64,000 nt of DNA. Source: Alloascoidea hylecoeti. Its lineage: Eukaryota. Position numbers and translations under genes: made by a program. Of this stretch, positions 3,208 to 61,384 are shown piece by piece (position 1 is the first letter of the stretch; each line of letters opens with the position of its first letter). The notes beneath the pieces were generated by a model. That model was not told the origin of the DNA and did no database searches. It saw only the letters and a program-made list of their open reading frames with translations. The stretch spans positions 682,001-746,000 of the forward strand of contig BCKZ01000004.1 in the NCBI GenBank assembly GCA_001600815.1. Reading direction: 5' to 3'.

Positions 3208-6200
3208 ATGTCTTCTTCAATTATTTCAAAACTTCACACTCAACTTATAAAATTGGTACGTTTTAAATTTCTAAATATGGTATATGATTTGATCTTCAAA
3301 CTCTAACTTTTAAACTTTGAATCATGCATTAGCTGCCGATTGAAACCGGTAATAGTATTGAAGATGTCGAAAATAATCAGAACTTTATCTCAACAAAAGA
3401 CACCCTTCTACAGCTATCAGAATCAAATTTGATTTCGGAAGTCTTAATTGGATTTACATCTCTACTGGATAATATACAAAAGGTATGAAATTATGATTAT
3501 TACGCCATAAAGTAAATAAGACTTTATAATCGGTCAATACATGAATAAAAACTAACCAATTTTTGAAATCTTTGTCTTTATAATTAAAGCATGATCGACA
3601 TGAGAAAGTTACAAGTAAAAATGTTTATTCATTAAGCTCAATCATTATTATCTTGAAGTTGATGACAGAATGTATCGAAGCAAATTGGGATTCATATGAA
3701 CCTTCACCAGTCGCCAAAGGTCGCGTTCCTATTCCCTTCAACAATTCTGGTTACATTAAACCATTTCTAAAATTTCATACTGTGTCTCCAAGGAGCTTAG
3801 ACTCAGCTCTTGTTCGAGAGCTATTTGGGCATGTTAAAAACTTAAGGTCCCCTGATGAAGTGATTACGTCCACAATGATTATATCTAATGGTAACATCAA
3901 GGCATCTACGATAATTGAGACACACGCTTACAGAACTCTCATTCAGGAAATTGATGAATATTGTTCAGTAATAATAAGATATATATCTGCAACAAACTGG
4001 AAAGATACCTTTGCATTTTTGAAGTCAAAATTAGGGATATTTCAAAGAACTCACGATGATAACGAATATATTCCATATATTGATTATTTGGGATGTTTAT
4101 ATCTTAATGAAGCTTCTCTTATAACTGTTTTTAAAGAGTTATGGGATTTCACAACCAGAGTCAGGAATCCATTGCATCATGCTTTGGTTTTCAATTTTTT
4201 CTCAGTTAGCATGGAGTATTGGGTTCAGTCAAGACCAAATGAGTTGTATAGAGGAACTCTTGAAGGGTCTTCGCTATTTCGAGAAACTAATGCTCTTTTT
4301 GACTATATGTATAATTCAACTGAAAATATAAATTCTCCTTATCAATTTGTTCTTCATAGATTTTTTTCACTTTTGGTTTGCTTTTCTCCGTCTAGTTTTC
4401 TCTCATTTATGTCATCTTCTGGAATTAAAAGATTTACGACAAATGCCAAAAAGATGAAATTTTTAAGTCTTCTTAAATCCCAAATATTTATTAAAAAACC
4501 AGGTGATTTACAACTGACCTGTATGGCAAACATTGGTATGATTGCGGCCTCTTTATTCAAGTACGACCCTGGAACACCCATCGCAAAATTCTTCCTATCG
4601 TTAAAATCTGACCTGATATCAGCATTTAAAGCATACAAAAATGACTTTTCAATAAATATTGTTTTACTTTACAGCAGTATATTTTGCTCCTACACCCTCA
4701 TGATCCCAGACTTTGTGAGTGATTATATTCAAAAAGAGTTAAACCGACCGGAAACTGATCCATTTGAGATCTGTTGCTTATGCACGGCGCTAAGGTCTAT
4801 TGGTGCAATTCCTTCGGCCTTTTCATTATATACCCGATATATGAATGAAAATGCTACTGAGTTAAGGGGCTTGATAAAAAAACATACACGCCTATTATTG
4901 AAATCAAGAGCAGGTGGCTCCTCTTCAAAGAGGTCATTATCTACAAGCAACTCTGAAGTTGTTAGTCTTCCTATTCTGATTAATGTCTTCTATGCCTTTA
5001 ATCCTAATCCATATTCATACTTTGAAGGATATGCTAAACCTGGGGCTGTTGTACGATCTCTTGAAAACACGGACATGGATCCTATTTGTGTATGCTTGGT
5101 TGATAGTGATAACGATGTAGCAAAGGGTGTCTTGGATTATATTACCTCATTTGTTCAAAAAATGGAGTCAGTCAAGCCTGAAGATGTGAATTTTGAAACA
5201 AGTAATCCAATAATGCCTATATATACTGCTGGCGGATATTTTGCTAAAGCTCTGTCCGATAAAATATTGGAGATTGATATGTATGATCAAAGGTTGCAAA
5301 GAATTCTAAATGCTCTTCTACTTTGCTTTTCTACCAGAGCTTATGTTGCTGAGCATTACGACTTAAAGAAAAAATGCTACAATGAAATCACAAGATTGGA
5401 AGAAGCTTCAACGAGACAGAAGATTTACTCAAGTTTTGAAACTGCATTTCTTTACTGTTTATGTTCACCTGATCAGGAAGTTTATAAGCTTGCATCCAAG
5501 GCTTTATCAGCTGCTTTAAAAGATGGTCATCTAACCTCTGGGATCGATAAATCATTATGCCCTCTATTGTTCAATGCTGAGCAATATGAAGAACTTTGCC
5601 CCAAAACGTTTGTCATCACAGGTGCTGCTGCATTACAGAAGAGAAAGCAATCAGTAGTACTTAAATTTACAATCCCCACTGATGGAATATTCAATGCCTG
5701 GGAACATATTTTCAATTGTTTCAATGCAGGTTCAGATACATTTGCTTATCAAAATGAATTTTCTAAAGAAAAAAGAAACTATGCTGGTATGCTCTCATCC
5801 CTTAGTGAATGCATTTTATCAAGTGATCCAGATACCAATGATAGGATTGCAGACCTAATTCCAGTTATTGAAGAATATCTTAAAAATGTAGTAAAACTGT
5901 TAAACTCTCCTAATATATATATTAATAATGCTATTAAGGATATTTTGTCGAAAGAGTTCAGTTTCTATTCACTTCCATTAATGTTTTCATTAATTGAAAC
6001 ACTTACAAAAGAAGTTTTACAAAAGGGAACAAAAGAAGAAATCATTAGAGTTTCTGATGGCGTAATATCCATTATTAAAGCTACTATACAGAGATGTACC
6101 AAAGAAAAGATGAAAATGACTACAATTTCGGTTTCAGTTTTATATCGTATTGTTATTCATTTATCTAATCTTCCGAATGATATAATTTATACGAAGCTGA

Positions 6201-9200
6201 AAATTAGAGCCTGTATGGTAATTCAAGATCTTTGCATAAATGCAGAAGAGTTACAAATGAAAGAGTCCGGTAAAATCAAGTTCAATGCAGTATCAATTAT
6301 GTTAAGGTGGTTTGAAAAGTCTATATTTTATAATTCAGATGAAAATTCTTTGACAACAAGCACTACTTTCACTTCAATCAGTAGTAGATTCGAAAAAAGG
6401 GTTGGTGAAATGGATTACTTATTGGCCGATTTAGCAATGGAATCAATCAAGGGTATTGCGTATCTTTCTTCTAGAACTGTGATTGAAGTTCCTCGAACTT
6501 CATCGGAAGAAGATTATTTGCAAGCCAAATCTTCTAAATATGGAGAAATGTTTGCAGTACTGCTGAGAGGCCTAGAGAAATATGAAAATTTTTCACCGGA
6601 ATTAACCAATGGTTCTAGTAGCTTCATTGCTAGAAGTGTTTTAACCCACACTAACTCTTCGGATGGCACTAATATAAGTGAAACTATTAATAGAGGACCT
6701 CAGTATCAACGATCTGGTACCATGTCTAAATTTATTATAATGGCACTAACTAATTTTCTCACATCCAATCCAGATGTTGGTTTGAAATTCAGTATACCTG
6801 TTGGTTATCACAACAATCCAAAGATTAGAGCTGACTTCTTGAGAGTTTTTGCAGGTATTATACAACTAGGTGTATCTAAAAGATTAGGTGGAAATGATCA
6901 AGTAAAATATCAAGCTTTGATGGAATTTTTACTGGAGAATCCTGCAATTTGTATCCGTATTTGCGATATTTGTCCTGCAGGTGAGGTCGATGAGTTGGCA
7001 ACTGGGTTATTGAACCTATATGAAAAAAAAGGAAAAGGTTTGGAGTTGTTGATGGGGATGGTCACAAGAGAAATTCAAAATACTACTCGAGTTGTGAGTT
7101 TATTAAGAAGAAATAGTGTTGCTACACGAATGTTATCACTGTTCGCAAAAACACATGGAAAGAAATATCTTACCTCTACTCTCCGGCCCCTTCTTGAAAG
7201 TTTTGTTAATAATCCAGAGGAGTATGTATTTGAACTTAGTACTGATAAAATTGGGTCGCATGAAGAAAAATCTACCGAAAATGTTAATAGATTTATGAAA
7301 GTCTTATCTTTATTTGCGACTGCCTTTCGAAGTTCTTATAAAACCATGCCACATGTTTTCAAAGAGATTTGTAGAACTATCTATGAAGCAGTTTTACCTC
7401 GATATCCAGAAGCAGCAGTAACTTCTGTGGGTTCATTTCTGTTTCTTCGCTTCTTTTGTCCAGCAATTGTAGCGCCGGAGTCAGAGGGTCTGATAAGTGA
7501 AGAACCTAAACGTGAAGTTAGGAGATCTTTATTGTTACTTGCCAAAGTGATCCAAAATATGGCTAATGGGACAATTTATTCTTTAAAATTACCTTTATTA
7601 TATGATAGGATGGGAGAACTAAACAAAGTCAACGAAATAATCGTAAACTTCATGAGGGAATCCACCATGTTTGATAAGTCTTTTTTGGAAATAATTCCAG
7701 AGTCCACAACCAATCATATGCAACCAGCTGCAGTTGTTGTAGAGAAGAAAGACATGATGTCTATTCATGCTTATATATACAACCATTTAGACGATATCAA
7801 TGCGATAGCTAAGGAATATGATTTAAATCCAAGATCATCACTTCATAGGCCAAGCCTTGATACTTTTTCAATAAATACCACAAGCACTGGATCATCTTCG
7901 TTAGATCTTGATACAAATTCGTCATATAACACTACTTTGTATGAAAAAATGCAGGAACTTGTGGAATCAATTGGTCAACCAAAAATTAGTGCTTCTTCCC
8001 AAATGGATCAAGATGATATATTTGTTGGTGATTTCGGTGAGAATGAGAGAAGATTGAATGATTTTATGACAAAAAATTCAGCTAAAGATTTTGGTCCTAT
8101 GCTTGATAAAAAATTGATTAGTGAGGGTGTTGCATCTGATGGTACATTATACTTAATTGTATCTTGGGGATTGTTTGATTCAAGAGTACTTACTGACACG
8201 GACATGCTTGTGTATAGAATTTTTAAGGTGTTGCATAAGATGAAAAATAGAACCTTTTCAATCTTGCTTGATTCTTCTGGATTCACTCAAAAAAACTCTC
8301 TGTCTGGCGATGTTGTTGAAAAATTCCGAAATCTTTGTCCACAATCTTTGCTAGAAAAATGTCAAGGAATTTACTGCTATAATATCTCCTCTGTATACTT
8401 ACCTATTCTTAAAGCCATTATTGAGGAAAATCAAACTGGTTTTGTTTTTAACCCCAACAAAACTCAATACTACTTCCGCTCTTCTTTTCATGACAATGAA
8501 GATTTTCGGTCCAAACCATTTGGTCTTAGTAAGAAAACGAGAAAAATTGATAATGACAACGGAGCAAAATTTGATGATGTACTATTATTTGAATATGATA
8601 CTAAACAATTCGTACCAGTTGAAATCAGTGTCGGCCGGGAATACCTTAAAATATATCATTCTGAACCAGTTTCTATACAATGTGGCCGACATAAGGAATA
8701 TCTTAAGCTCCACGATGTCTACCACGCAACCGATATAACAGGTTCATTTTTATCTAGTAAAGTCGGTGTCTCTGATGAATTTTCCGTTCGGCTTGAAATT
8801 GGAGATGATATTATACTTTCAAGCCCTAGAGGGGCAGAAATTATCAGGAGTATCAATTCTTCTCTTAAGAAATTTAGCGAGCATTCTTCTACAGCTTCTT
8901 TAAATGACATAGTTGTTCATTCAATTCAAGAAATTTCAAGTATTTTTAATAACTTGGTATTCGCATCCTTTTGTTCTGAGGACAATGATGTTAGAAGCGC
9001 TGGATTTACTTTAAACTGTGTCATGGAAAATATTTTTGGAGAATCAAGTAATTCAACTATTCCCCGCGATGAATTATTTGTTCCAAAAAATATTGTGTCT
9101 ACTGTGAGACGTTATTCAGAAGAATTATCAAATAAATCCCCAAATACAACCTATGATTTCATTAAAGGATTTTTCCAGGCATTTGAAATGACTACTTCAT

Positions 9201-11239
9201 CTAGAAGAGATCTAATTTTAATGTATGTCTCTCCATGGATCCATAATATCTATACCAATGTTTATCTATCAGATAAAAGGAAAGGTCCAAGAAGAAGTAG
9301 AACCTTGATACGAGAATTTTTAAGAATATCGTCAATATCAAAATCACTCACGGGATTATTTCACAAATATATTTGGAGACCTCTATGTGAGAGAGAAGAA
9401 TTGAGTGATATTCTTGTAGATGAGGTAATTAACTCGGCGATTGATAAGAAAAATGAAGGTTCTAATGAAGAAGATATTTTATCAGTTCTTACTGCTTTTC
9501 CTTCTTATATTCACAGTCAAGAAATAATGAATAAATTGATTAATATTTCCTGTGTTCCTACAGAAGAGAAGAACCAAGCGAAAGCCTTAGTATATACTCA
9601 AACGAGTTGGGTAGAGACAATTGTTCTATTAAAAGCTATTACTATTTTGGGTTTTGATAGGGTTGATATATGCCGATTAATTGTTCCTAAATTGATATAT
9701 GTTGGTGCAATGTTTATTGGCAGAGGACCACTTGATTTAAAATCATCATTACTTAAAACTATTGTGAATATGTTTCATATTTTTATTGCAGATGAAAGCA
9801 TTAATCGATCAAAGAGAGATCGATTAACTTCTTTAGCTGAGAAGTTTACATCTCAAAGAGCCCTATTATTGATGGGTTTGAATGGTAAAAACGATAAAGA
9901 AGAAGAAGAAAGAATGCACACACCTTCTCTTATCAATTCTCTAGAAATATATATTGACTATTTTTATGAGATCATGGATCTAACTTCCAAAGATAAAGGT
10001 CAGTTTGAAGAATGGAAGGAAGAACTATTATCACTAGTTATAGATTCTGCATTTAGGGAACAATCTGCAGTTAGATCTAGAGCGATATTAGTTATGGGAT
10101 TCTTAGCTAAAAGCAACACAAATGATCTTATATCGCGGACATTGACTTTACTGCAATCAGCTACTCACACAGATGTGGCCTCAGATGAAAGAGTTGTTGA
10201 TTTATCAGTATGTTTACTTGAATGCGTGGCAAATCTTTTGGGTGGACTCCCCTCAGATTCTCATTGGTATGGTAAACTATTTTGGTTAGGTTTTGGGTGT
10301 CTTCAGTTCCAACACCCAAGAATATACACATCTTCGATTCAATTAGTAGCCAAAGTATTGGAGCTTATGGATAATCATGGGTTCTTTCCTGATGGAGAAA
10401 TGATTAAAGTTCTGATGAAAGAAAGATTCCCTTATGGACAATTACTAGATAAACTCGATGAACTTGCTAATGTCCGATTTTCACAAAACATGTTTGATAA
10501 TTATATGAGAGCTAATATGCTTAGAGGATTATTTTATCATCCAACTAGATCTATAACACTTAAGTGTTTGTCTAAAATAATGGTTATAGAAAAGAAGAAC
10601 ATGAAGGTTTACTATAGGACGCATCCGGTTGTTGAACCTAATGAAGAATTACATCCTTCTTTAATTCTTGATTATTTGAATGTATTCACAATCGAAAGAA
10701 AGGAAGCTATTAAATTTTCAAAGATGTATGATAAAAATATGGAAATAGTTGATTGTGGTGAAGGTATATATACTCCAAAGGTTTTGCTTGATTTTTATAG
10801 TGGTGGAGGTGATTTCATCATTGTATCTGGTTACTTTGAACTGGAAATGTATAAGTATTTGTCAAATGATGATCCAATTTTGTTGATTTTCCTAAGATGG
10901 TTATTAAAAAGCCCAAATATGCCACAAAAATTTATTGTCTTGGGGTATTTGGAAGACAAGTTTAAAGAAATTATGGAAAAATCTACATCTTTTCCAATTC
11001 TCTCATCATTACAACAATGTATTGTACAGATTACAACAGATCCAGAATACAACTCAGATTATCATCCATTATATAAACAAAAAGTCCTGGATGTTGCTGA
11101 AAAGTATGGGTTTTCTCATGTTGACGTTGATGTCTTCACCAATCCAGAAAAAATATCAGTGAATGTTGTTTCTGAGCAAACTGATTATTTGAAACGATTA
11201 TTAGGAAGAATTCTGGATAATAAAACTTTATATCCCTAG
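3208..11239 (+). CDS. Neurofibromin/Ira1-Ira2-type RasGAP, paralog A; exons 3208-3255, 3333-3482, 3590-11239
   Basis: RasGAP motifs LLRRNSVATR (Arg finger), FLRFFCPAIVAPE and LAKVIQNMAN, followed by a Sec14/PH-like region. Introns GTACGT..CTCTAAC..TAG and GTATGA..ACTAAC..AAG join in frame to the 2528-aa ORF. Confidence 0.93.
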
Positions 11240-21829: not shown

Positions 21830-24178
21830 ATACAATTAATATTATCAATTATCAATTAACATTATTTACAATTACAATTAAAAATTATTAAAATTATTAT
21901 TATTATTATTTATTTTGTGTTTTGTTAAATTTGTTATTCATTTTTTATATTTATTTCATTTTATTTTGGTTCTAGATTTATTGACGTCATTTATCAATTG
22001 AAATCTAATCAATCTATGCATCTATCTTTTGTTTATCTAAATTTGATGTCATTGTTAGCATAACACTATAATTTTATATATAACCGTCATTTATTTATAT
22101 TAAACAATTATAATCATCTATTTCATATTTCTTATGGGTATTACCTGTAAAGCTTGTCCATTGAGATTTATTAAAACACTGAATAAAAAAACATCTAGAA
22201 TCTAGATTGATATGTATTTATGTTATACCTGGTTTACAAGATTCGAATAGGAAATGCATAATGTTTCGTTTTGTATTTTCGCTCTGATCATGAAATGAAT
22301 TCAATATATATATAAAATAATCTATACAAATTTATAGTTATAATTTAATTAACATTTTATATGTATGAAACAATAATTCAAAAGAATCATATATAATATT
22401 AGATGTAATTTGTAAAACAATAGCAATTTTAGTCTCGAAATGTTCGTATACGTACTCTGTAAAATCAATGTGAAGAGTATATCTAGAAAATCTAGAAACT
22501 TCATCTTTTTATGATAAGTAAATTATATTTCCAAGTCAAGCACACAAACACTGTCATTAAGCGTTCTAGTATTCTTAACGTTGAAACATCCTACTCTCAA
22601 TAGAACTCTTTGAGATATAGCTAGCAATTTTACTCATATTTGTACATGTTGTTCCTTTAACACATGGTTCTACTAATCAGTTGGAGATCTAGATTTCTTT
22701 GTTTCGACAATCTAAATCACCTAGGCCTGTATAATTCTGCTGGCCATAACAAGCATTGATCAACAAGACCAACAACTTTATATAGCCATGAAAGACAATA
22801 TGAAATAATTAATCTTGAGGGGCTTGTTCTATGAATGTAAAGCCCTAAATAAATATATGTGTATTTGAATTATAGATGAAGTTCGCCAGAACTTTCCTTA
22901 ATAATAGTTACCTTCGCTAAAACTTACTACACATTAAATAGTTATATGATTAATTAACTAGTTAGAAACAAGATAAAAGGTGAACAAAATCTACTTTACA
23001 GGTTTTGTTCTACACTGAATTACATTTATATCTTTTAAAAAGAATAACTATACAACAGTAGTAGCAATTTAGCATAAGTATTTGTTGGCTATCTCTACTC
23101 AGTCTCTTTTAATCAACATTTTTTAAGTAAATAACCATTCAATTTCTGAAAGATTTATTAGATTTATCAGAGTTAGATGTAGAGCTGTTCCTGAACTTGC
23201 AATTGACCATGGTGATCCAGGTAAATTTAAGATAAAATAATAAGCTTCTATATGCATATGCATATATAAGTATCGATATCGGTCGTGTAATTAAATTTAA
23301 AACTAAAAGATTGGTTATAAATGACATTGAATAAAACTACGGTCTAGTTACTAAATATATAGCTGATTATTCTCACAATTGATATCTTAATTATGATATA
23401 TATATTTTGTATCAAAGAAGAAATTTTCAGAAGCATGTATCATAATATAATCAGTTAGAGTTAAATAAAAAGTATGTTTGGATCGATATATTTAGCTGAT
23501 ATAATTAATGTTAATCAAGATTCAAGAACAAAGAAGTTATTCCTCTGATTTCTTAGAATTCTCACCTTAGTCACCCTGCAAGAATCGTCTGTATTCAATT
23601 ATTATCATGATTAATGTCAGCTAATAGTTCTAGGTTAAATTCTTTTGGAAAGGAAATATATCTCGTTTAATTATTTATCTATTTTAAATATAGGAACAAT
23701 ATTTCAAACCCATTTAATATATATTACTTTAAAAATCATTTCATAAATTTTTTAGATAATAATGTATTACACCCTTGGAACAGTTCACTAAAGAGTCGAT
23801 TGGCTTTTTGGCGCAACTGGGAGAACAGGCACTTTGAACTTTAACAAATAAAATAATTCCTGTTCAGGAATATATTGTACGTATACCTTGTTAGTGAATT
23901 GGTGATAAATCTTGGTTAAAATCAAATATATATATATATATATATCAAGTTTCTTGGAGCTCAAAAAAAGAGTGCTTAAGCAGGCCGAATCCGGCCCTGA
24001 GGGAAGTCGGTGGTTTCATTCGAATTGTTGGAGGTTAAACGCCAAAAAAACACCTTTATTAAATGGATATATAGTTATAATTTGTATTATTGGCAATTAA
24101 TTGCTCACTTTCTAGGTTTCTTATCGATGCTTCTGAATTTGCTTTGAAATTGATAATATTTACATTCTATTATAGATT

Positions 24179-24720
24179 TTAGCATAATCTATTTACTAAC
24201 CAGGCAAACAGATAGGCTTTATGAGTAAATCCGAGTATTTCTGATTGACTAGACCGAACAAAATCCAACATTTCAGGGTCAAAAAGACACGCTTCTTCCA
24301 TTGCTAAATAAACCTCAACTTCATTATAAGGCTGAAATTTAAACTGATTTATAAAATCACGGGTAAAAATAAATCTTTTATCAAAATGAAGAGGTGGAAA
24401 CCAAAATTCCTCTTCATCAGTGACATTTGATACTTTCAAACCACCAGATAGACGAATATGCAAATTGTTTATTCTATTCTCTAATTGTGTAAATCTTAGA
24501 TCCATATCGTTTATTTTAGTTTCCAATTGTGTATATTTTAAATCTATCGTTTCGATGATTTTTGTTTCATAGTTTTCTGCCAATTTTTTAGATTCAGCGG
24601 TTAAGTCCTTTAACAATATATATACATATCCTTTAGGTTTATCATTCCACTTGAATCTGACGCTATGTCACAAAAATCTGAAGACCCGGTGGTCAAAACT
24701 GAGTATGCATCTGTGGACAT
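24179..24720 (-). pseudogene. Orphan coiled-coil family copy 1, frameshifted by an extra TA in a TA run (24616-24624)
   Basis: The ATG at 24720 (MSTDAYSV) is 104 nt upstream of the 145-aa ORF; removing 2 nt gives DMYILLKD, matching DIYTLLKE of copy 2. Confidence 0.8.
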
Positions 24721-25236
24721 CTTATATTATAAGGATCCTAAATTAGTGATAAGGGATATTTAATTAAATAAATTTTGATTTAGTTGTATAAATAAATACC
24801 TAGTACCTACCACGGCTTCAATTAGATTTATATCAAGATTTTAAAATGTTGGATTATCAGCCGAATTTATAGTATAAGCCAATACTCAGTTGAGCTATAA
24901 AATAAATACCTGTCCAACTACTAAGCAACCTATAAATCATGTTGATTTTAATTAATATCAAAAAGGCAACTCCAAATATGTCGATACTCGTAATTTATAA
25001 GAAGCAGACGAAATTGATCATATATAGGACTAATTTGGAAAATACATCATTTTTTATAGCGCATAAGAAATGTAAAACAGGTTCCTCGGAGTTCACACTT
25101 GAGTGATCAGGCTAGTTGGTTATAAGGAACTTACTTGTTCAACAAATAGCTATAGGCCAAGGAAAAATAAAAAAACACCTTTCAAAAAAACATTCTTTTA
25201 TATGAAGTTGTAAACTAATGGCGTTAACATTGCTAT

Positions 25237-25519
25237 TGTCAGGTTATTATGCATGTGAGACATCGATACGGGTATCAACACCTATAAATACAGTAATGCC
25301 ACAGTTATTTTAGCAACGTCTATAATTAAGTAAATTTAGACATTTATTTTATATAAAGATAAGGGGGAAGAAGAGAATCGAATGAGGTTTCTAATTCTAC
25401 ATAGAAAAGTCTCTCTTTAAATACATGAGTTAGATTGGGTAAATGAGAAACATAGGAACAAGATCATAAGGAATAGATAGGATAACAAACAAGATAGTAT
25501 CATATTATAACCTCAAACA
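25237..25519. mobile_element. Possible solo LTR
   Basis: 283 bp, TG...CA ends with imperfect inverted termini (TGTCAGGTTATTATG / CATATTATAACCTCAAACA) and internal TATA-like motifs; no clean target-site duplication. Confidence 0.3.
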
Positions 25520-25692
25520 GTAGGACTTCAGGAATTGATCGGTTTCAGTGGTAACTTGTAAGTGGTTAGCGCGTTATCCCTCCTTGAGTCTTTGTAATAC
25601 AAGTCATTCTTCAATTATGGATATATAAACCGCTAACATTAAACTGCTATATCTTTATATTCCTTACATAAGTACAGCTATACTGCTACTTA

Positions 25693-26262
25693 TTAACGGT
25701 TATCTAGTTTTCTAATAAATTCTTCTGCATCTGTTTTGATATTTCCTAACCACTCAAACAGATCAATTTTGTGGGAAAATCCGAGTATTTTTGATTTATT
25801 GGCACGAACATACCTCAATATTGTAGAGTCATCACAGGCATTTTCCAGTGCTAAATATACCCCAACCTCATTATAATATGTATTTTGAAATTGATATTTC
25901 ATATTTCTGAGACTGCTATCATATTTGCAACCAAAATGAAGAGATGGAAAGTAATATGCATCAACATCACTGGAATTTGATGCACTATGTTTGCCAACAA
26001 CGGATAATTTAAATTTGTTAGATAAACCAATGTACATATTGTTTATTCTAGTTTCTAATTGACTAAGTTTTAGATCAATCGACTTAATATTTTTTTGATA
26101 GCGCTTTGCCAGATTGTTAGATTCGGTGTTAGAATCCTTCACTTCCTTTAATAATGTATATATATCATCCAGATCTATATCGGTTGAAACTGAAGCTGTA
26201 TCACAGGATTCTAAGATATAAGAGTTGACAGTATTTGAGCGAGACAATTCACTTGTAGACAT
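25693..26262 (-). CDS. Orphan coiled-coil family copy 2 (intact, 189 aa)
   Basis: Open ATG-to-stop ORF, homologous to its neighbours (QLETRINN, FPSLHF, YNEVGVYLALENAC, ILGFSHK). Confidence 0.85.
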   Translation of the reverse strand: MSTSELSRSNTVNSYILESCDTASVSTDIDLDDIYTLLKEVKDSNTESNNLAKRYQKNIKSIDLKLSQLETRINNMYIGLSNKFKLSVVGKHSASNSSDVDAYYFPSLHFGCKYDSSLRNMKYQFQNTYYNEVGVYLALENACDDSTILRYVRANKSKILGFSHKIDLFEWLGNIKTDAEEFIRKLDNR

Positions 26263-27614
26263 CTTATAGATCTTACAACGAATAAAAATATTTGCAGCTA
26301 TTAGTTAGTTATATTTTTGGGCTATAACTTCGTGCGATTGGACTATGCATATAAATCACTAGTATTATGGTGATAATTAATATATACTATAATTAGTTTT
26401 TGTATAAATGTAATCATATACAGCAATTGAGAGATTAATTTTAAAGTTGAATTGAGTCTTATAATATACATACATATCGTTACTAGAGTGTCAGTTATAT
26501 ATATTTATATATCAAATTTTCAAAAAGTTGGATTTTCAGCTAAATTTATAACATATATTCCGTTGAGCTATAACTTAATTATATAAATACCAGTATATTT
26601 TAATAATAATTATGAGCAACTACTAAGCAGACTATAAAATATGTTGATTTTAATTCCAGTAGTATCAAAAAAGGTAACTCCAAGTGTAATACCGAAAATC
26701 GTAATTCATAATATGAAGACCAAATTACATGTAGAACTAGGCTGGAAAATACATCAGCTAATTGATTAAATATCTTATAATAAATGGGCTTCGCTCAGGT
26801 TCATTGAACTTGTGATTCGGAAAACCCTGGTAGTACATAAACTATGGATTTTTAGGAGTAGGCGTATATAAGTTAGGGGTTCTTATCAGGATTCAGGACG
26901 CTTGCAACCTGTTTATATCTTCCTGCAGTCTCCTAGAGATATTACCTCCCACAAAATTATTAATAAAGTTCTAAGTTCCTGTTTCTCCCAGTTACACCAA
27001 AAAGCCAAACAACTTCTTGTGAACCGTTCTAAGAGTGATACCTGCATATAACTCTAAAATATTAATAGGCATCAGCCAATGTATAATTGTACTTACAGTG
27101 GAAATATTCCTAATCGCCAAGACAAACTCGAAATTGTTCACTGAAGCTGATAACACTACCAGTATAATACGGATATTTGTGTTACCTAATGGGGTATTTA
27201 TGCACTGTATATATGTATAATGTTTGCATGTTACTGCATTCATGCGTTACGAATGAAGGAAAGGGCTCATATTTGAATAGCTTATTTATCTAGCCTCAAC
27301 TAACCGAACCAATATAAATTCAATAAGAACGGCATGAATTCCATTCGACATATATCTAACAGTTTAACTCTTTGAAAATTCATTTAATTCTGTTGGTGGT
27401 GGTGCCAAGGATTTCAAAATGACGTGTCAGGAAAGTCCATGACTGCCACCATACTTGGGCGCTTAAATACTACCTATTATCAAAGATTCCAAACAGTATC
27501 ATTCGAGCTTCAGATCATTTGTTACACACATATTTACTGCTTTATGACAAAAAGACTAACATTTCTTGTTAATCTTCTAATATATATATATTTATATATA
27601 TCCATTTTCTATTT

Positions 27615-28056
27615 AGCTTAACGTATTTAGAAAAGAATCAGACAGATAGAGTCCATGATTATAGATTCGAGTATTTCTAAGTCTTCCGGTTATCTCTTTG
27701 AGTTTATTTCTGCCACATTGACGAATGTACCAATATTACATTATTTGTTCAAACATATCTTCCAATCGAGAAAGATTTGGATCCAGAGCGTTTATTTTAG
27801 TTTCTAATTGTCTGATTCTTAGATTGATATCGTTTATTTTGAATTGTGTAAATTTAAGATTTATCGTTTCGATAATTTTTGTTTGACAGTTTTCTGACAA
27901 TATTTTAGATTCAGTGTTATAATATTTTATCCCCTTTAATAATGTAATTATACGTATATCATTTAGATCTATTATCCTAGTGGAATTTGAAGCCATGTTA
28001 CAAAAATCTGAACAAGAATCGGTAATGCTCAAAGGTGACTCTATATGTGTAAACTT
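27615..28056 (-). pseudogene. Orphan coiled-coil family copy 3, decayed
   Basis: Start position reads AAG TTT ACA versus ATG TCY ACA in the other copies; premature stop at 27736; remnants of the C-terminal EILGF..YLF block lie downstream. Confidence 0.75.
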
Positions 28057-28779
28057 CTAGTAATTATAGATCTAGAGGAACAGAATATAGGTAGATGTAT
28101 TGTTGTTTATAATATAGACAAAAATTTGAATAGTTGGATTGTCATTATAAGATAGCTATAGTGTATGTATATCTTATATTTAGTTGATTATGATATAATA
28201 AATAAGATAAATAAATAAGTACTATTGTGTTTTTATAATCACTCAAGAACAACTAGTTAACTAGTAACCAATCTATAGACCACTCAATTATACTTAATAT
28301 ATCGAAAAAGGCAACTCCAAAGATGACTTATATTATATACCGAAACTCATAATTCGCATGAAGATGAGAAAAAGATTATATATTACTAATTTGGACATTA
28401 CATCATCATCAACCATAATATAAACACTGTTCTTTAAATGATCCACTAATTGATTAAGCTTGTAATTGAACAAACTTTGGTTGCAATTAGCACTGTGATA
28501 TGTATTGATTAATTAGTTGGAATTTTAATCATGATTTAAGAAATCCATACTAGACCTTATTACTGGTTAATTGATCAAGAACAAAGAACAAAATAACACC
28601 CTAAAACATTGTATTTCATTCATTTATAACTAATTTCTGATAGTCAGTAGCTCTAGATTTACATTTAAATTTATCTCAGAAAGAAGAACTAATTAGTATC
28701 TTCTTATATAAATACAAGCTTAAAGTCTTGACTTAGATCCAAAGAAAAAAAAGATCTTGGCTATCATAGTTACAAAACA

Positions 28780-28995
28780 ATGAATAATTATACTAATACT
28801 CCCGGTACATATCTAATGGGCGATACAGTTATTGTGGCCAAGGTCGTGAACGACCGTTATAGTTTTGAGTTCAAAGCACCTCGAGTTGGTGCACATTATA
28901 CAGAAGTTTTCACCGAGGACGGAAATTATAACATTTGTGGGAGAAGATGTGAACTTGAAAACGGGAAATTTAAGGGTGTCAAATCCCACTCATAA
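28780..28995 (+). CDS. Small orphan protein (71 aa)
   Basis: TATATAAATA at 28705, strong context ACAAAACA-ATG, higher GC than flanks, globular composition. Confidence 0.6.
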   Translation: MNNYTNTPGTYLMGDTVIVAKVVNDRYSFEFKAPRVGAHYTEVFTEDGNYNICGRRCELENGKFKGVKSHS

Positions 28996-51738: not shown

Positions 51739-54700
51739 ATGACTGGTAATCAGAAGTCTATAACTAAACCGATTCATGTTATACCTGCCATTATAACAAG
51801 GCTGCTTAAAATTGTAAGTATTTTTATGCATATGCTAATATAATTTATAAACTTTAGCACTAACAAAAATGCAGTTACCCTTCGAGACGGGAAATAGTGT
51901 AGCCGATACTGAAGAAGATAAACTCTTCATCTCCACAAAGAGGACACTATTAGAATTGTCTAAATCACAACAAATCACACAAGTTCTTCTTGGATTTTCT
52001 ACATTGTTAGATACTATAACGAAAGTAAGTACCAGTTGCTATTGTGAATATTTGACAAATAATTACTTGAAACTAATTGTCGGTATTCGTACATATGCAT
52101 AGCGAGATCAATTCGAAGAAACTAAAAACAGAAATGTGTTTTCCTTAAGAACACTTGTTGTAGTGTTAAAACTTATCAATAAATGCACAGAGGCTAGTTG
52201 GGATACTTGTGAATCCGCACCAGTACGAAAAGGACGTGTACCAGTTACTTTTGGTCAAACAGGCTATGTTAAGCCATTTTTGAAATACCACACTGTTTTA
52301 CCATCTCCAATTGATGATAATATAGTTTTAAAGATGATGGATCAAATGTTAAAACTAAGATCAGAGGCTACAATTGCCGATACAATGACACTCATTTCTA
52401 ATGGAGCTATTCAACATTCTACTGGTTTAGACGGTCACCCTAACAGAGACTTGATAGATGAGATCGATGAATACTGCTGTACTATTATTAGATATTTGAC
52501 GGCATCAAATTGGACAGCCTCCTATTCAATAATTTATTCCCAAATTGATTTGTACAAAACTTTCTCCGGTAATGAAAATGATATTATTCCTAATAGCGAT
52601 TTACTTTCCATGATTTATTTGGATGAAAAATCGATAATTGCTTTATTTAAAGAACTGTGGCTTCTGCTTGCTTCAGTTAAAAGTCCATTGCATCAATCTT
52701 TGATTTTCTATTTCTTCTCTGTGAGTTTAGAATATTGGATAGTTGCTCGACCGGAGGAATATTACGAAGCCATCTCCAGTGAAACTTCCCCTCTCACAAT
52801 TGAGACCAATGGCTTTTTTGATTATTTGTACACTGCCAGTGAAAATTCAAAATATTATTGTATTATGATCAGATTTCTCACGATTCTGATTTGTTTATTA
52901 CCCAATGTTTTTAATGCATATCTAACCTCAGGAATGAAAAGATTTACCACAAATTCAAAGAAGCTCAAACTACTAAGTTATTTGAAATCTCAACTGCATG
53001 TAACTAGTGTTGGAGATTTACTTCTTGTATGCATGTCTACTATTGCCACAGCAGCTTCGTCTATCTATAAATTCGATGCGCAAAATCCAATTGTTAAATT
53101 TGCAGTTGGTGTTAGTCTTGAAATTCAACCTATTGTTTATAATTATGCCAATGACATGTCTCCATCTGTTATGCATATATATGCTGAATTATTTACTGCA
53201 TATTGCATTATCAAACCTGAATTCATAGAACACAGCGATTTTCGCAATCTATTAGAAGGGACAGATATTGAACCATCCATCATTTGCTGTGTTGCAGTGG
53301 CTTTGAGGGCTGCTGGTTCTGTTCCTCAATGCAACAATATGTATATGAATTATATGAAACAAAATGGACGTGTTTGGAGAAACATGATTTGGAAACAATC
53401 TCGATTACTCTTGAAATCAAGAGCCTCAGGGAACTCCTCCAAAAAATCGTTGTCAACTAGCAATTCTGAGGCCGTTAATCTTCCAATTATTATCAATGTA
53501 TACTATGCATTCGCTCCTTATCCTCTTCTTTATTTTGAGGATCTTGATGCAAAACAAAATGGATCAGTGATTAAGTATATGGACCCAATTGTGACTTCAT
53601 TAGTTGACTATGATGGTGATCTAGTACAGGCATCGACTGAATTTATTAAAGCTCTTATTTCACCTAGTAGAATTTTGAACATTTCCCCAGATGATGTTAA
53701 TCTTTCTAAAGGTCATATTATTACACAGGTATACAGTTGTTGTGGATATTTAATTGGTGCTCTTTCCGATAACATTTTGGACAGTGAAATCAATGTTAAA
53801 CGTGTTTCAGGATCTTTAAGTTTAATAAATGAGCTTCTAAAATGTAGAGCACTAATTGCAGAAAGATTTAAACTGCTTGGGAAATCTGGTAATAATTTTT
53901 CTATTGTCGAAGGATTTGAGACTAGACAAAGATTATATACATCTCTGGAGAGTGCAATATTGTCTTGTCTCTGCTCTCCTGATGTTGAAATTTATAAAGT
54001 GGTAATACAAGCTATTGATAATGTACTTAAAGATGCTTATGCCACAGAGGATATGAACGGTCATGTTCTATCTTGTCCAATGCTATATAACTCTGATATA
54101 TACAAAGAATTTAATACTGGAAATTTTGTAATTACAGGGCAGGTAGCATTACAGAAGAGGATTAGGAAAATCATTAAGCAATTAACTGTCGCAACTGATG
54201 GTATCATCAATGCTTGGAGTTCAATTCATAGAAGATGGATCGATCTTCATAGAGATGAGGAGACTTATCAAACTAAATTTGCAATTGAGGTCAGGAACTA
54301 TGGTGGTATGTTATCTTCATTGTCTGGTTGTATTCTTACATCTGATTCAGATACAAATGATAAGGTTGCTGCAATCTTGCCAAATATCCACACATTTATC
54401 CAGAGCTTGGTAGATTACCTTATTTCTCCAAATCTTGTCATTTCTGATTATTCCAAGGAGATGATATCCCGGGAATTAAGCGGGGATGCTTGGCCATATG
54501 CTTATGACTGTATGGTAGCTGCAACAAAGAGACTAATGGGGCTACCAAATAAGGACCAGGCTCTTAAACTTTTGGGACAAGTCATTGGTGTTACTAAAAT
54601 AGGAAATCTGAGATGTGTTGATGAAGGAATTGATATTCCAGCAGGCGCCATAGAAGTTGTTTGGACTGTTGCCCAATATTTGACTCAACAGAACTATAAT

Positions 54701-57700
54701 AATCCCAATGTTTTAAGATTACTCATTACAGTTACACAAACAAATAATATCGCAGAGGAAAATAAAGATAATTGTTCTTTTAAAGTTGCAAAATCATTGA
54801 AATATCAAGTTGCTATGCTGTTTGCAGATATTTGCCAAAAATCAAGTTTTTATAAAGAAACGGATGCATATGCTGCAGCAGTTGCCGCTTTTGGAAACTC
54901 AGAACGTCGTATTGAAGAACTAGATAATTTATATTTTGACATGGCTTTGGAAAGTGCTAAGGCAGCTGCTTTATTAAGTTCTATCACGTTTGATGTGCCT
55001 CAAACTGGAAGTGAGGATGATTATCTCCAGACTAAGTCTGCTCTTTGTGGACAACAATTTTCTGGAATCATGAGTATTTTGGAGTATTGGGATGGAATTT
55101 TACATGATAATGAATCTACTATACATGTTCCAAGTAGTAACAACAGTGTTGTTAGATCATTCAACTCCTCTAAATCATCTGATTACTTTATACATGAACA
55201 AAAAAGAAGAGCAAAACGAATTTGTGACTATTGTATTACAAGCATGTCAAACATGACAAGAGTGAATATGGATGTTGCTCTAAAGTTTGCAATTCCAATG
55301 GGGTACCATAAAAATGCTATGATTAGATCTTCTTTTCTTGGAATATTCACAGATTTAGTACTTCAAGGTAAAAGCAATGTTATAAATAAAAGTGACAATG
55401 AAAGATTTACTTCATTATTGAAATTCTTGGTTGAGAACATACATATTGCAGTTGACCTTTGTGAAAATTGTCCCGTAACTGAGGTTGATGGACTAGCATC
55501 TGCACTTATGAATCTATTCGAAACACAGGGAAAAGGTCTTTCTTTGCTGAAAGCAGCTGTAACCAGGGAAATTCATAATACTGTTAGAGTTGTTGATTTA
55601 TTGAGAAGAAATAGTGTTGCGACAAGGCTTCTTTCTTTATATGCTCACAAGTATGGATCGGAATATTTGTCATCTACTCTGGGTCCTATTCTTAAAAGTT
55701 TTATGGATTCTCCAGATGAACATGTTTTTGAACTTAGCGCAGATAAGTTTAATTTTCAAGATAGTAAGGCAAAAGAAAATATTGATAAGTTTATGCGATC
55801 GTTATCAGCATTTTCAGGTGCATTTTTACGATCACTTGATGCGATGCCAAAATCATTTAAGGAGATATGTTATACAATTCAACAAACAACAATACCAAAG
55901 TTTCCAGAGGCCTCTATTACTTCTGTTGGATGTTTTCTTTTTCTAAGATTTTTTTGTCCGGCAATTGTAGCCCCTGAAACAGAAAATCTTCTTACGAAAC
56001 AACCAAGACGTGATGTCCGTCGTTCTTTGCTTCTTTTGGCGAAAGTCATTCAAAACATGGCCAATGGTAGTTTATATTCCTTGAAGTTACCTTTACTTTA
56101 TAACCGAATGAAGGAACTAAACAGAGTTAATGATTATATTATTCAATTCATGAAAAGTGCCGCCGAAATCCCATTTATGAAAAATGATTTGCTTGACATG
56201 GCACCCGTTATTGAAATAAACAATAAAGTAGAAGGGATTGATATTGATAAAATTGATAAGTCGTTTATCCATGAATATTTACACAATCATTGGGAAGGTA
56301 TTCATCTTAGAGTGAAATCTCAAGGCACCAAAAAAGGCCTAGGTGATGCAAGATCGGTTGAAATTAACAATAATTCAGCTTCTTCACTTTCAAGTAGCGA
56401 TTCCGATGCTCCGGATTCGAAGCTTTATAACAAATTGGATGAACTAGTAGAAGCTTTAGGCCAACCAAAAGGCTCGTCTACATATCAATTACCTGAATCT
56501 ATTACTAATAATACCACAGAAGCTGGAATTCGTCTTTACGAATTTATGGTGAAGCATGCATCAAAAGATTTTGGGTCTATGACTGAGAAACAATTGATCA
56601 GACAGGCTGTCACTCGAGATGGTGATGTTTTTCTTGTTGTTAATATAGGTCTTTTTGGAACAACAAATATTGGTGATCCCGAAATGGTCATATATCGATT
56701 TTTCCAGGTTGCTGCAAATTTGTGGGATAAAAAATTCGCATTGCTTATGGATTGTACAGGGTTTACAAATAAGAATTCAATTCCTGTTCAAATTATTACA
56801 CAGGTTGATGCACTTTTCCCACCAAATATTCGTACCTGTAGGGCCGTTTATTACTATAATATTTCGAAACCGTTTATTCCTTATTTAAATCATTTTATTT
56901 CACAGTACTCTGGGGGAAATTCGGTTATATTTGACTCATATACTGTGAAATATATTTTCACATCTTCATTCTATGAAACTGAGGAGATGAATGTACCACC
57001 TTTTGGATTAACACACAAAACTTTAAAAATTGCTAAGGATGTAAGAATCGAATTCTCTGATGTTTCGATGTATTTAAAGGATGAGGATAAGCAAACTGGG
57101 GTTGAAATGAGAATTGGGGAAGAATATGTTCAAATTTGTCGAATTGACCCAGCTGTATTCGATTGTGGCGGAAGAACAAGATATGTTCGTCCCATGGAAG
57201 CTTATCATGTCACAGATTTGAAGAAAGCATATGTTTCAAATGCAGCCGATTCAGGACATTTTACCGTTGAATTAGAAGATGGAGAACAACTAATATTATT
57301 CAGTAAAGAAAAAAGTACAGATATCATTCGTTCTGTCAATGCTATGATTTCAAGGTATAGTGAAAATTCATCCTCAACTTCAGACAATGAAGGTGTTGTT
57401 CATTCGATTAAAGATGTAGCAGCTTCTTTTACCACAATGGCCTTTTCCGGTCTTACATCTGAAGAAAATGAAGTGCGATCTGTTGCCTATCGTTTGGCAT
57501 GTGAGACTGTTGACTTATTTGATTTTAAGACAGGTAAATCTAGAAATTCAAGAAAAGATCTTTATTTCCCAGCCCATAATACATTCTTCTGTTCTGATAT
57601 TTCTGAAAGTATTTCTATGGACCAACCAGAGATGACTTATGATTTTATTAAAGCATTTTCTTCAGCGTTTATAAACTCTTCAATGAAACAACGTGGTGAT

Positions 57701-59719
57701 ATATTAAACATGTTATCAAAATGGGTTGGTAATATATACAAGTACATATATCTTGTTGATAATGCGGCAGGTAAAAAATCCAGAAGAACTAGAGAAATTA
57801 TCAGAAACCTTATAAAGTTAACTATGATATCACCCGAACATGTGGCATCTTTTCATGAAAGTATTTGGGAACCAATCTTCCAAACCCCTGAGTTGGCTGA
57901 TGTTTTACTTGATCAAATTATTGAATCTGCAATTGATCGAAATACAGAGGGTAAAGATTGCGAAGATATAATATCAATTCTAACAGTTCAACCAAGTCTT
58001 GAAATGTCAGGTAAAGCTATCTCAAGGCTAATAAAAATAGCATCCGTTCCAATTGAATCAGCTTCTTCGCAAATCTCTCATGTACAAGGAAATTGGAATG
58101 AACTTATAGTCATGGTGAAAGCATGTGTTGCAATATTTTTTGATAAATTAGAATATTGCAAAGCATATTTCCCAGAATTATGCTTTTTATGCACATCATT
58201 TTTAGATATAGGACCATTTGAATTTCGTGAATACTTGCATGAATTGACATTAAATTCATTACATACTTTTACCAATTTAAAGGATTTATCTGTTGAAACT
58301 CATAACAAAATAAGTTTTATTGTGGAGAGATTTTCTGGAAGTCGAGCTAGATTAATTTATGGGTTAAATAGAACAACTACAGACTTCAATGTTGGGGCAA
58401 ATAGTGAAACAGGCAGTGGATTAGAATTCGTTTGTAATTCAATATTTGAATTTTTTGAAACTGTCGGTGAGGAAAATGATGTTAAAAATTGGCGTTCAAA
58501 GTGGACATCATATATTATTGATGCTGCATTTAAAAAGGCATCACTTATAAGAGGAAGAGCATTAATTGTTATGGGACTATTGGTTAAAGATAGTACAGCC
58601 GATGTTTTAATACCTAGAATTCTTAAACTGACAACGAGATCAGTAAGTGCTGATCAGGTTGGTGATACTCAATCTTCTGACTTGAATGAATGTGTTCTAT
58701 ATTGTTTCACAAAACTGATAGATGATTTATCACCTAACTCTGCTTGGATTCCTGTGATGTTTTGGTTTGGATGTGCTTGTTCTCACTTTGCATATCCAGG
58801 TATATATCTTGGTGGTATTTCGCTAATGGCGAGGGCAATGAAAAAGCTTGACGAAAGCCACAGATTCCCAGATGGTGATGTGATTGGTTATCTAACAGAA
58901 GAAAGGAATAATCTTGGAAATTACTTGAACGAAATGGATGAACTCTTAAACATGAAATATTCTCCAAGTAATTTTCATATCTATATTTGTGCACTTCTTG
59001 TTAAAGGTATTAATTATTCACCTACACGTCATATTGTGATGGAGGTTATGACAACTATAATAAATATTTGTGCAAAGAATGCAAACATTTATAAAGAAAA
59101 ACATGCTGTTGAAATCCCAAATTTGAAAGAATTTATATTGAGTCCAATGATTTATGCTATTTTCTTATTACTTAATTCAAGAACAGATTCAGAAAAGAAA
59201 CATTATCTACAAAAGTATTTTGCAGCTAGTGGATCTAAGATAGTTAAGATCGGAGAAGGATTCTCTATTCCAAATACATTAATTGAATTTTTTGAATCAG
59301 ATTGTGATGAAGTATTAATAGCTATCTATATGGCTGTTTCATTAATGAATGAACCAACTTGTGAGGAATTGGTTTGTCATAAATTTGTTAGATGTCTGAT
59401 TTTTTTTGGTGATAAAGCTTTAAGACCAAAATTTATGTCATTTACTTTTTTTAGCAAAAAGCTCAAGGAAATTTGCGACCATTACCCATCACTTCAGTTA
59501 GTTAATACATGCCAAGAGTTTCTCACGAATGTGTACAGCAATCCACAATATGATTATTCACATTCAGAAGAATACCTTAATGCTTTAATGCAACTGGTAA
59601 ATAAATACAAAGTAACAAATCTTAATATTAGAGGTCTTACAGATATTGATTACCCGTTCATGGCTAAACAAACAGAAAAATTTATGTATTTCACTAACGA
59701 TATTCTCAGTATAATATGA
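51739..59719 (+). CDS. Neurofibromin/Ira1-Ira2-type RasGAP, paralog B; exons 51739-51813, 51875-52024, 52103-59719
   Basis: LLRRNSVATR, FLRFFCPAIVAPE, LAKVIQNMAN; two GTAAGT introns at the same positions as paralog A (150-nt exon 2 in both). Confidence 0.93.
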
Positions 59720-61269: not shown

Positions 61270-61384
61270 GGTTGTTTGGCCGAGTTGGTCTAAGGCGTCC
61301 GACTCAAGAGAAATATCTCTTCGCAGCTTTGATAGCAGTGTTCGGATCTCGCAAGAGGCGAGAGTTCGAATCTCTCAGCAACCA
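61270..61384 (+). tRNA. tRNA-Leu(CAA) with 32-nt intron (61309-61340)
   Basis: GGTTGTT/AGCAACC acceptor stem, A box TGGCCGAGTTGG, TCCGA/TCGGA anticodon stem, CAA at 61305-61307, variable arm, B box GTTCGAATC, downstream T run. Confidence 0.95.

Follow-up and report, generated by a model that had tools for sequence, protein, structure and literature searches.

Within the genome of the yeast Alloascoidea hylecoeti, a tandem array of three related coiled-coil genes lies on contig BCKZ01000004.1, in a stretch of 64,000 nucleotides (nt; positions 682,001 to 746,000 of the forward strand) that was analysed at its full length and is called the window here. All three genes, referred to as copies 1, 2 and 3, are encoded on the minus strand with spacings of ~1.55 and ~1.75 kilobases (kb). 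An earlier note, made from the sequence alone, had placed three same-strand paralogs between 24179 and 28410, and tblastn comparisons within the window confirm them: copies 2 and 3 share 42% identity over 149 amino acids (aa; E 4e-27, the lowest value), copies 1 and 3 share 57% over 56 aa (E 1e-13), and copies 1 and 2 share 41% over 78 aa (E 2e-6), with a DNA identity among the copies of 66-76%. A 14-aa heptad unit, described before as present in 2, 1 and about 2-3 copies, was found as such, being repeated twice in copy 3, present once in copy 2 and occurring in copy 1 as two units, the first shorter by 2 aa, followed by a partial third. Likewise, the C-terminal motifs named earlier (FPxLHF, YNEVxVYLAxExAC and ILGFxHK..LFxWL) are found and do not differ between copies 2 and 3. 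Outside the repeated units, the spacers and 3' flanks display no detectable shared similarity in DNA comparisons within the window. The array is best explained as real protein-coding genes restricted to this yeast or near relatives of it, and it would have originated by an old tandem duplication of a unit of ~0.9 kb comprising a promoter block and a gene.

Copy 2 (25693 to 26262, minus strand) is the sole intact gene, with an open reading frame (ORF) of 189 codons. Its protein consists of an acidic, Ser-rich head (residues ~1-30), a coiled coil (~31-83) containing the single 14-aa unit, a linker of Ser and acidic residues with FPSLHF at its end, and a helical C-terminal domain (~114-188). Three protein variants of copy 2 were found in other assemblies and runs: M121I, an extra Asp, and an allele with three amino-acid changes in run X4. 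The indel polymorphism of copy 2 keeps the frame, as an ATC insertion is present in both X3 and X4, and the extra Asp of copy 2 in X3 recurs in the 190-aa Logan protein P0010. Codon 31 of copy 2 (26170) is a lone CTG at a conserved Leu position, which is CTA in copies 1 and 3 and CTC in X3 and X4, a small hint that CUG may be read as Leu in this yeast.

Copy 3 (24179 to 24720, minus strand) is frameshifted. The N-terminal frame begins with the ATG at 24720, comprises 36 codons and ends in a stop codon at 24610-24612. Shifted by one base, a second frame extends open from 24619 to a stop codon at 24179; it covers the remainder of the coiled coil together with the C-terminal domain, and its first ATG lies at 24505 (108 codons). 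The frameshift is located in a (TA)n run at 24616 to 24624. Compared to the in-frame state deduced from copy 2, this run has 2 nt too many, and removal of one TA restores a codon-for-codon alignment with copy 2. The same frameshift is found in X3, an independent wood-decay metagenome run. In X4, the run is a further 2 nt longer and a 1-nt deletion is found at 24564, giving a different, doubly shifted allele with a 17-codon out-of-frame segment that contains three stops. The full-length frame of copy 3 would have been lost through slippage in the TA run. Two ways of rescuing it were considered by eye and rejected: the intron candidate GTATAT...CAG of 49 nt is in the wrong length class, and for ribosomal frameshifting a slippery heptamer is lacking in the required frame. 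In X4, too, the C-terminal frame is open, despite nine substitutions in it, and since the frame for coiled coil and bundle is open, an N-terminally truncated product may still arise.

Copy 1 (27736 to 28026, minus strand) is a truncated paralog, and its 86-codon ORF (27736-27996) encodes the head and coiled coil only. The N-terminal homology runs on to 28026 without a start codon, the original start being lost, and the stretch directly upstream of the ORF aligns with the N-terminal frame of copy 3 (46% over 26 aa, E 8e-5, tblastn). At the other end, the homology stops abruptly near 27769-27790 and is followed by ~1 kb of unrelated sequence with a dispersed repeat; DNA and tblastn comparisons found no trace of the C-terminal domain beyond this point. 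The abrupt end, together with the unrelated, repeat-bearing sequence, indicates truncation by rearrangement and not slow decay. The birth-and-death picture drawn from the sequence before, with one intact, one frameshifted and one decayed copy, holds, except that copy 1 is truncated and did not decay gradually. Copy 1 is identical in runs X1, X3 and X4. The repeat fragment lies at 26960 to 27066, within the sequence standing in for the lost 3' part of copy 1, with a core at 26960-27042 covered at a depth of 774 versus 62 in the source run (~12 times single copy), and many contigs of three runs break at it. A second, inverted copy with 78% identity lies at 23743 to 23843, 336 nt downstream of the copy 3 stop codon. 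One stretch of the repeat may, like a primer-binding site, be complementary to the 3' end of a tRNA, and neither Rfam nor ARAGORN identified an RNA gene in the two fragments.

The repeated unit also includes an upstream block of ~150-250 nt, which was overlooked in the earlier note and is conserved in all three copies. This putative promoter or 5' untranslated region lies on the minus strand at 24829 to 25050 for copy 3, at 26508 to 26757 for copy 2 and at 28259 to 28406 for copy 1. Two islands, TTGGAGTTRCCTTTTT and GATGTANTNTCCA, each occur three times in the 64-kb window and only within these blocks, against expected numbers of 0.00 and 0.11. Both are near-invariant, the first being located at 25036-25048, 26743-26755 and 28392-28404 and the second at 24960-24975, 26668-26683 and 28305-28320. 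A pattern scan of contig collections with the promoter motif gave 0 matches. In copies 1 and 3, the first island may resemble a homeodomain half-site beside an Mcm1 P-box, as in mating-type-regulated yeast genes. As copy 2 is without the A/T-rich core, an Mcm1 P-box-like reading of the island GATGTATTTTCCAAATTAGT is not claimed here.

Protein architecture and orphan status

The heptad pattern of the family proteins is pronounced. In the best 42-residue windows, a and d positions are hydrophobic at a fraction of 0.75-0.92, compared to 0.13-0.17 elsewhere, and only 11, 0 and 1 of 500 shuffles reach the observed value. Hydrophobic residues follow the 3-4 spacing of a canonical heptad coiled coil over at least five heptads, within a predicted long helix that has no helix breakers. 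AlphaFold2, run on the shallow family alignment, predicted a helix over residues 31-83 with a predicted local distance difference test (pLDDT) score of 71-78, a disordered head, a disordered linker (84-115) and short helices after residue 116, with a mean pLDDT of 53.7. When the C-terminal 94 residues were folded alone, the pLDDT was 64.8 and the predicted template modelling score (pTM) 0.52, and the model contained five or six helices with a pLDDT of 70-81 over the last 55 residues. A homodimer prediction, run without controls, scored 0.02. Scans of the family proteins identified neither a transmembrane segment nor a known toxin domain. The protein is best explained as a disordered acidic Ser-rich head, a coiled coil of ~6-8 heptads, a flexible acidic/aromatic linker and a ~75-residue bundle of five or six helices. 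Given the heptad coiled coil, the protein should be an oligomer, and it could be envisaged that the coiled coil serves as the oligomerisation module and the bundle as a binding module.

Structural comparison was likewise proposed before as a check on the family. Foldseek found nothing at E <= 0.001 for the full-length model in BFVD or for the C-terminal model in BFVD or the PDB, and VIA returned only long-helix matches for the full-length model. Among the 50 matches listed for the C-terminal model, 26 are retroviral or retrotransposon capsid domains or domains of Arc, PNMA, PEG10 or MOAP1. The C-terminal domain may hence be a capsid-lobe-like five-helix bundle, a lead that comes from the predicted model.

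To place the family, the proteins were compared with Pfam, a HMMER profile of the three copies was searched against 1.84 billion protein representatives, and an index of 5.8 billion clusters was queried. No copy, and none of the C-terminal parts alone, matched a Pfam family at threshold. Mug135, DUF1640/CCDC90 and ORF1p, which had been suggested as candidate relatives, were all absent from the Pfam scans at E <= 10, and an NCBIfam scan gave chance-level matches only. A sub-threshold match to CRAL_TRIO_N (PF03765; 17.1 bits versus a cutoff of 23, E 0.006) covers 25 residues of copy 2 (25770-25850, residues ~133-157). It is probably due to chance; the Pfam scan found no such match in copy 3 and no CRAL/TRIO (Sec14) domain following it in copy 2.

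With the HMMER profile, nine of the 1.84 billion representatives were recovered at E <= 0.001. Three of these are the locus's own proteins, the only three family proteins in the protein collections searched, and the best stretch of the other six falls within profile positions 14-100, i.e., the N-terminal and coiled-coil part. Five of the six were fetched (P0005-P0009), and all are coiled coils with 14-residue repeats. These bacterial and phage proteins, with the repeat xLExRIxxLDxRFxx, resemble the family in the 14-aa unit (HMMER E 6e-8 to 9e-4), as do PHROG 12015 (phrog_12015, E 4.5e-5), PHROG 6701 and the XhlA-type hemolysin PHROG 1193. However, similarity to the PHROG proteins is limited to ~36 repeat residues, and the bacterial and phage proteins were not recovered with the C-terminal profile, and the likeness is taken as convergent coiled-coil sequence rather than shared ancestry. 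Word-index searches confirmed 1 of 67 and 3 of 1536 candidates, every one from this locus, and pattern matches in the viral contigs of IMG/VR (64) and in metagenome contigs (594) gave 0 confirmed relatives. The orphan status claimed in the earlier note is thus borne out, as outside the coiled-coil repeat only the locus's own proteins were found at E <= 0.001. No source gives the family proteins a name, although no literature search was made for the family itself. With no relative in the collections searched and no source naming it, the sequence family appears to be new.

Variation between isolates

Four DNA runs from three studies contain the locus. The most informative comparison is with X4, another isolate under the same species label, in which one 5.5-kb contig at a depth of 8 spans the whole array. 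Over 4401 nt, the window and X4 differ by 17 substitutions and four indels, and the substitutions are strongly clustered. Copy 3 coding sequence (542 nt) carries 11 of them (2.0%) and copy 2 (570 nt) carries four (0.7%), compared to two in the remaining ~3180 nt (0.06%) and none in copy 1. Of the two non-coding substitutions, one precedes the ATG of copy 3 by 24 nt and the other is intergenic, with none in 26263-28500. In Fisher tests against the rest, copy 3 has a p of 3e-8 and copy 2 a p of 0.006. Of the 15 coding changes, 14 are non-synonymous (all 11 in copy 3 and three of four in copy 2), and nine of the 11 changes in copy 3 fall in the frame for coiled coil and bundle. In X3, copy 3 is identical to the window, and copy 2 differs by the in-frame extra Asp codon and one synonymous change. 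The fast divergence that the earlier note took as typical of genetic-conflict loci thus receives substantial support from variation within the species.

The X4 states are isolated singles and doublets, split about evenly between those that agree with the homologous base of copy 1 or 2 and those that agree with neither. Gene conversion from these two copies was therefore rejected as the origin of the differences. In X1 and X4, depth stays level across the genes at that of a single copy (85% likeness), which argues against a close extra paralog as donor.

Comparison of the paralogs by the Nei-Gojobori method gives ratios of non-synonymous to synonymous divergence (dN/dS, omega) that vary along the protein. 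Between copies 2 and 3, omega is 0.50 overall, 1.7 in the linker, 0.85 in the C-terminal domain and 0.2 in the head and coiled coil, the last with saturated dS; between copies 1 and 3 it is 0.80.

Surroundings of the array

The window has a GC content of 30% and bears fungal genes, some of them interrupted, including genes for a CFEM protein, cwf21, SHMT, an AP mu subunit, a split mitochondrial carrier and a glutaredoxin. The ORFs flanking the array have no Pfam family, among them a 71-codon ORF on the plus strand (28780-28995) between the array and the glutaredoxin gene. As regards a long terminal repeat (LTR) element context, only the dispersed-repeat fragments of ~100 nt are found nearby. 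Rfam identified no RNA genes in the locus, and no tRNA gene was found there. The sole tRNA gene of the window lies at 61270-61384 on the plus strand (Rfam, 47.4 bits) and was missed by ARAGORN with bacterial settings; as it spans 115 nt, it presumably contains an intron.

Two giant ORFs on the plus strand (3662-11239 and 52334-59719), of 2525 and 2461 aa, encode IRA/neurofibromin-like RasGAP proteins. They are 41 kb apart on the same strand, are 37% identical over ~2480 residues and form an old local duplication. In baker's yeast, duplication of this gene is known only from the whole-genome duplication.

Interpretation and comparison with known systems

The reading we favour, and to which we give a little less than an even chance, is that the array encodes a real, species-restricted and fast-evolving family of oligomeric binding proteins engaged in some genetic conflict. 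The genes would be expressed, the coiled coil would assemble the protein and the C-terminal bundle would bind a partner and carry the specificity. Diversifying pressure on the family would explain why amino-acid changes gather in the two copies that keep the C-terminal domain, and why the flanks and the domain-less copy 1 are near-identical between isolates. Furthermore, the upstream islands are near-identical among copies despite a coding dS of 0.4-0.8, which argues for continued use.

Several observations weigh against this reading. Under neutrality, site counts lead to an expected non-synonymous share of 0.80, which the observed 14 of 15 changes do not exceed significantly (p = 0.16). The case for selection hence rests on the 11- to 32-fold excess in density over the flanks in two genes, and a local mutation cluster could give the same density contrast. 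Three adjacent doublets among the copy 3 changes could point to error-prone repair, and the polymorphism comparison is with a single divergent isolate whose contigs have a depth of 8. In addition, copy 3 is disrupted in every run covering it. With all three alleles broken, selection on copy 3 needs either a truncated product, which is unproven, or changes that predate the breaks. The genes are single copy by depth and lie outside any recognisable element. No RNA run containing the locus was listed, and the metatranscriptome X7 has two short pieces of low likeness at 28165-28231, which are taken as unrelated. As for a capsid-type nature of the bundle, Pfam gave no Gag family at E <= 10, and a sequence search of the PDB gave no capsid chain at E <= 10.

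The alternative that deserves most attention, although we consider it somewhat unlikely, is an orphan cellular coiled-coil protein, e.g., a stage-specific structural or regulatory one, that is under relaxed constraint and dying back, with the copy 3 cluster reflecting a mutational event such as error-prone repair near the unstable TA repeat. The near-neutral paralog omega of 0.5-0.85, the disruption of two of three copies, the three doublets among the 11 copy 3 changes and the non-significant ratio of change types would all fit, and no target or partner of the protein is known. Yet the intact copy 2, 1 kb away, is also enriched 11-fold over the flanks (p = 0.006), with three of its four changes non-synonymous. 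Moreover, about half of the X4 states match paralogs, so that both lineages have contributed to the copy 3 changes, which a single mutational shower would not produce, and the conserved islands likewise count against a gene on its way out. The more extreme form of decay, in which all three genes are non-functional relics and copy 2 is merely not yet broken, is decidedly improbable. It would agree with two of three copies being broken and with the lack of homologs in the searched collections, but a 189-codon frame is very unlikely to be open by chance in stop-rich DNA of 30% GC (an estimate from base composition), the indel polymorphism of copy 2 stays in frame, the promoter islands are conserved, and the substitution density lies far above that of the flanks, beyond what neutral decay can give. 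A selfish poison-antidote or meiotic-drive locus, in which full-length and truncated coiled-coil products would co-assemble as toxin and antidote (copy 1 being the coiled coil only and copy 3 lacking the head), appears very improbable. Its appeal is that the array is tandem, lineage-restricted and fast-evolving with structural variation between copies, that the truncated copies retain the conserved promoter blocks, and that copy 1 is perfectly conserved between isolates. However, the lack of transmembrane segments and known toxin domains in the scans speaks against it, and co-assembly is hypothetical.

It is also conceivable, but decidedly improbable, that the C-terminal domain belongs to DUF3627 (PF12299) as a very remote member and that the family is virus- or element-derived. 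In large DNA viruses, DUF3627 forms the C-terminal module of KilA-N/Bro-type proteins, of which many eukaryotic copies exist. A language-model feature search with the whole protein gave three top clusters with 72%, 23% and 29% DUF3627 members (scores 0.79, 0.79 and 0.77), whose proteins of 174-201 aa are near the family protein in length, and with residues 96-189 alone the best cluster scored 0.88, with 162 shared features and 48% DUF3627 members. Since all scores are below the tool's line of 0.9 and shared features below 170, this is a lead only. Against it, only five of the ten best family-bearing matches for the C-terminal part agree, the Pfam hidden Markov model has no match at E <= 10 in whole proteins or C-terminal parts, and no relatives were found in IMG/VR viral contigs or, by Foldseek, in BFVD. 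DUF3627 proteins of nucleocytoviruses, baculoviruses and eukaryotes resemble the family in length, but the family is without a KilA-N/Bro domain. DUF3627 is the domain of baculovirus Ac13, a protein required for nuclear egress of nucleocapsids (bioRxiv 10.1101/2020.07.13.201756), a role without an evident counterpart here.

Within the favoured reading of a binding-protein family in genetic conflict, a more specific version may be spelled out, which we regard as unlikely. The partner would be a capsid-type protein of this genome's retroelements, and the bundle would act as an assembly poison resembling the C-terminal domain of Gag capsid (CA-CTD), as in Ty1 p22 and Drt2. The array would then represent an anciently domesticated single CA-CTD-like lobe fused to a coiled coil, i.e., a tandem set of restriction factors that poison capsid assembly, with a binding surface caught in a within-species arms race and copy 3 giving a DRT2/p22-like truncated product from an internal start. 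This combination, too, is unlikely on our analysis. Gag was absent from the HMMER matches in the 1.84 billion proteins.

The array is of interest because its amino-acid sequence changes 10-30 times faster than its surroundings within a species, making it a rare, testable candidate for a host-parasite or selfish-gene interface in a non-model yeast. To our knowledge, budding yeasts are without RNA interference-type and many other transposon controls, and the sole well-understood protein-based control there is the Ty1 capsid-fragment system of Saccharomyces. Were the capsid version true, budding yeasts would have invented capsid-fragment restriction a second time, independently. Should that version prove wrong, the array would still be a compact example of birth-and-death evolution, with an intact, a microsatellite-toggled and a truncated copy, and if the polymorphism is a mutational cluster, it would be one more orphan family of modest interest.

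Among known systems, the wtf genes of fission yeast and the Spok genes of Podospora resemble the array in being lineage-restricted and tandem, with intact and broken copies and rapid protein change. However, the family shares no sequence or domain similarity with them and is without transmembrane segments. The domesticated Gag genes with an N-terminal coiled coil, such as Arc, PNMA, PEG10/RTL and MOAP1, are animal genes encoding two capsid lobes with Gag signatures, whereas the present family has one small bundle and no Gag sequence signal.

The closest parallels may be Drt2 and Ty1 p22/p18 of Saccharomyces (PDB 9rxy), which are like the family in being small yeast proteins with a helical bundle, predicted in the family, of ~75-90 residues and five helices. 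DRT2 is a Gag relic whose 5' part is shut off by a 1-bp deletion, whereas its CA-CTD ORF is intact and restricts Ty1' (PMC10951436). Copy 3 is like it in having a frameshifted 5' part and an intact C-terminal ORF. Ty1 p18m is described as a bundle of five helices and ~90 residues which heterodimerises with Gag, poisoning the capsid lattice (PMC13709905). The likeness to Drt2 and Ty1 p22 extends to structural variation of the locus, nearby retroelement-type repeat fragments and arms-race-like evolution. The family differs from them in having no Gag sequence similarity and in carrying a coiled coil before the bundle. Finally, Drt2 is a relic inside LTRs between tRNA genes, whereas the present family forms a three-member tandem array with its own conserved promoter.

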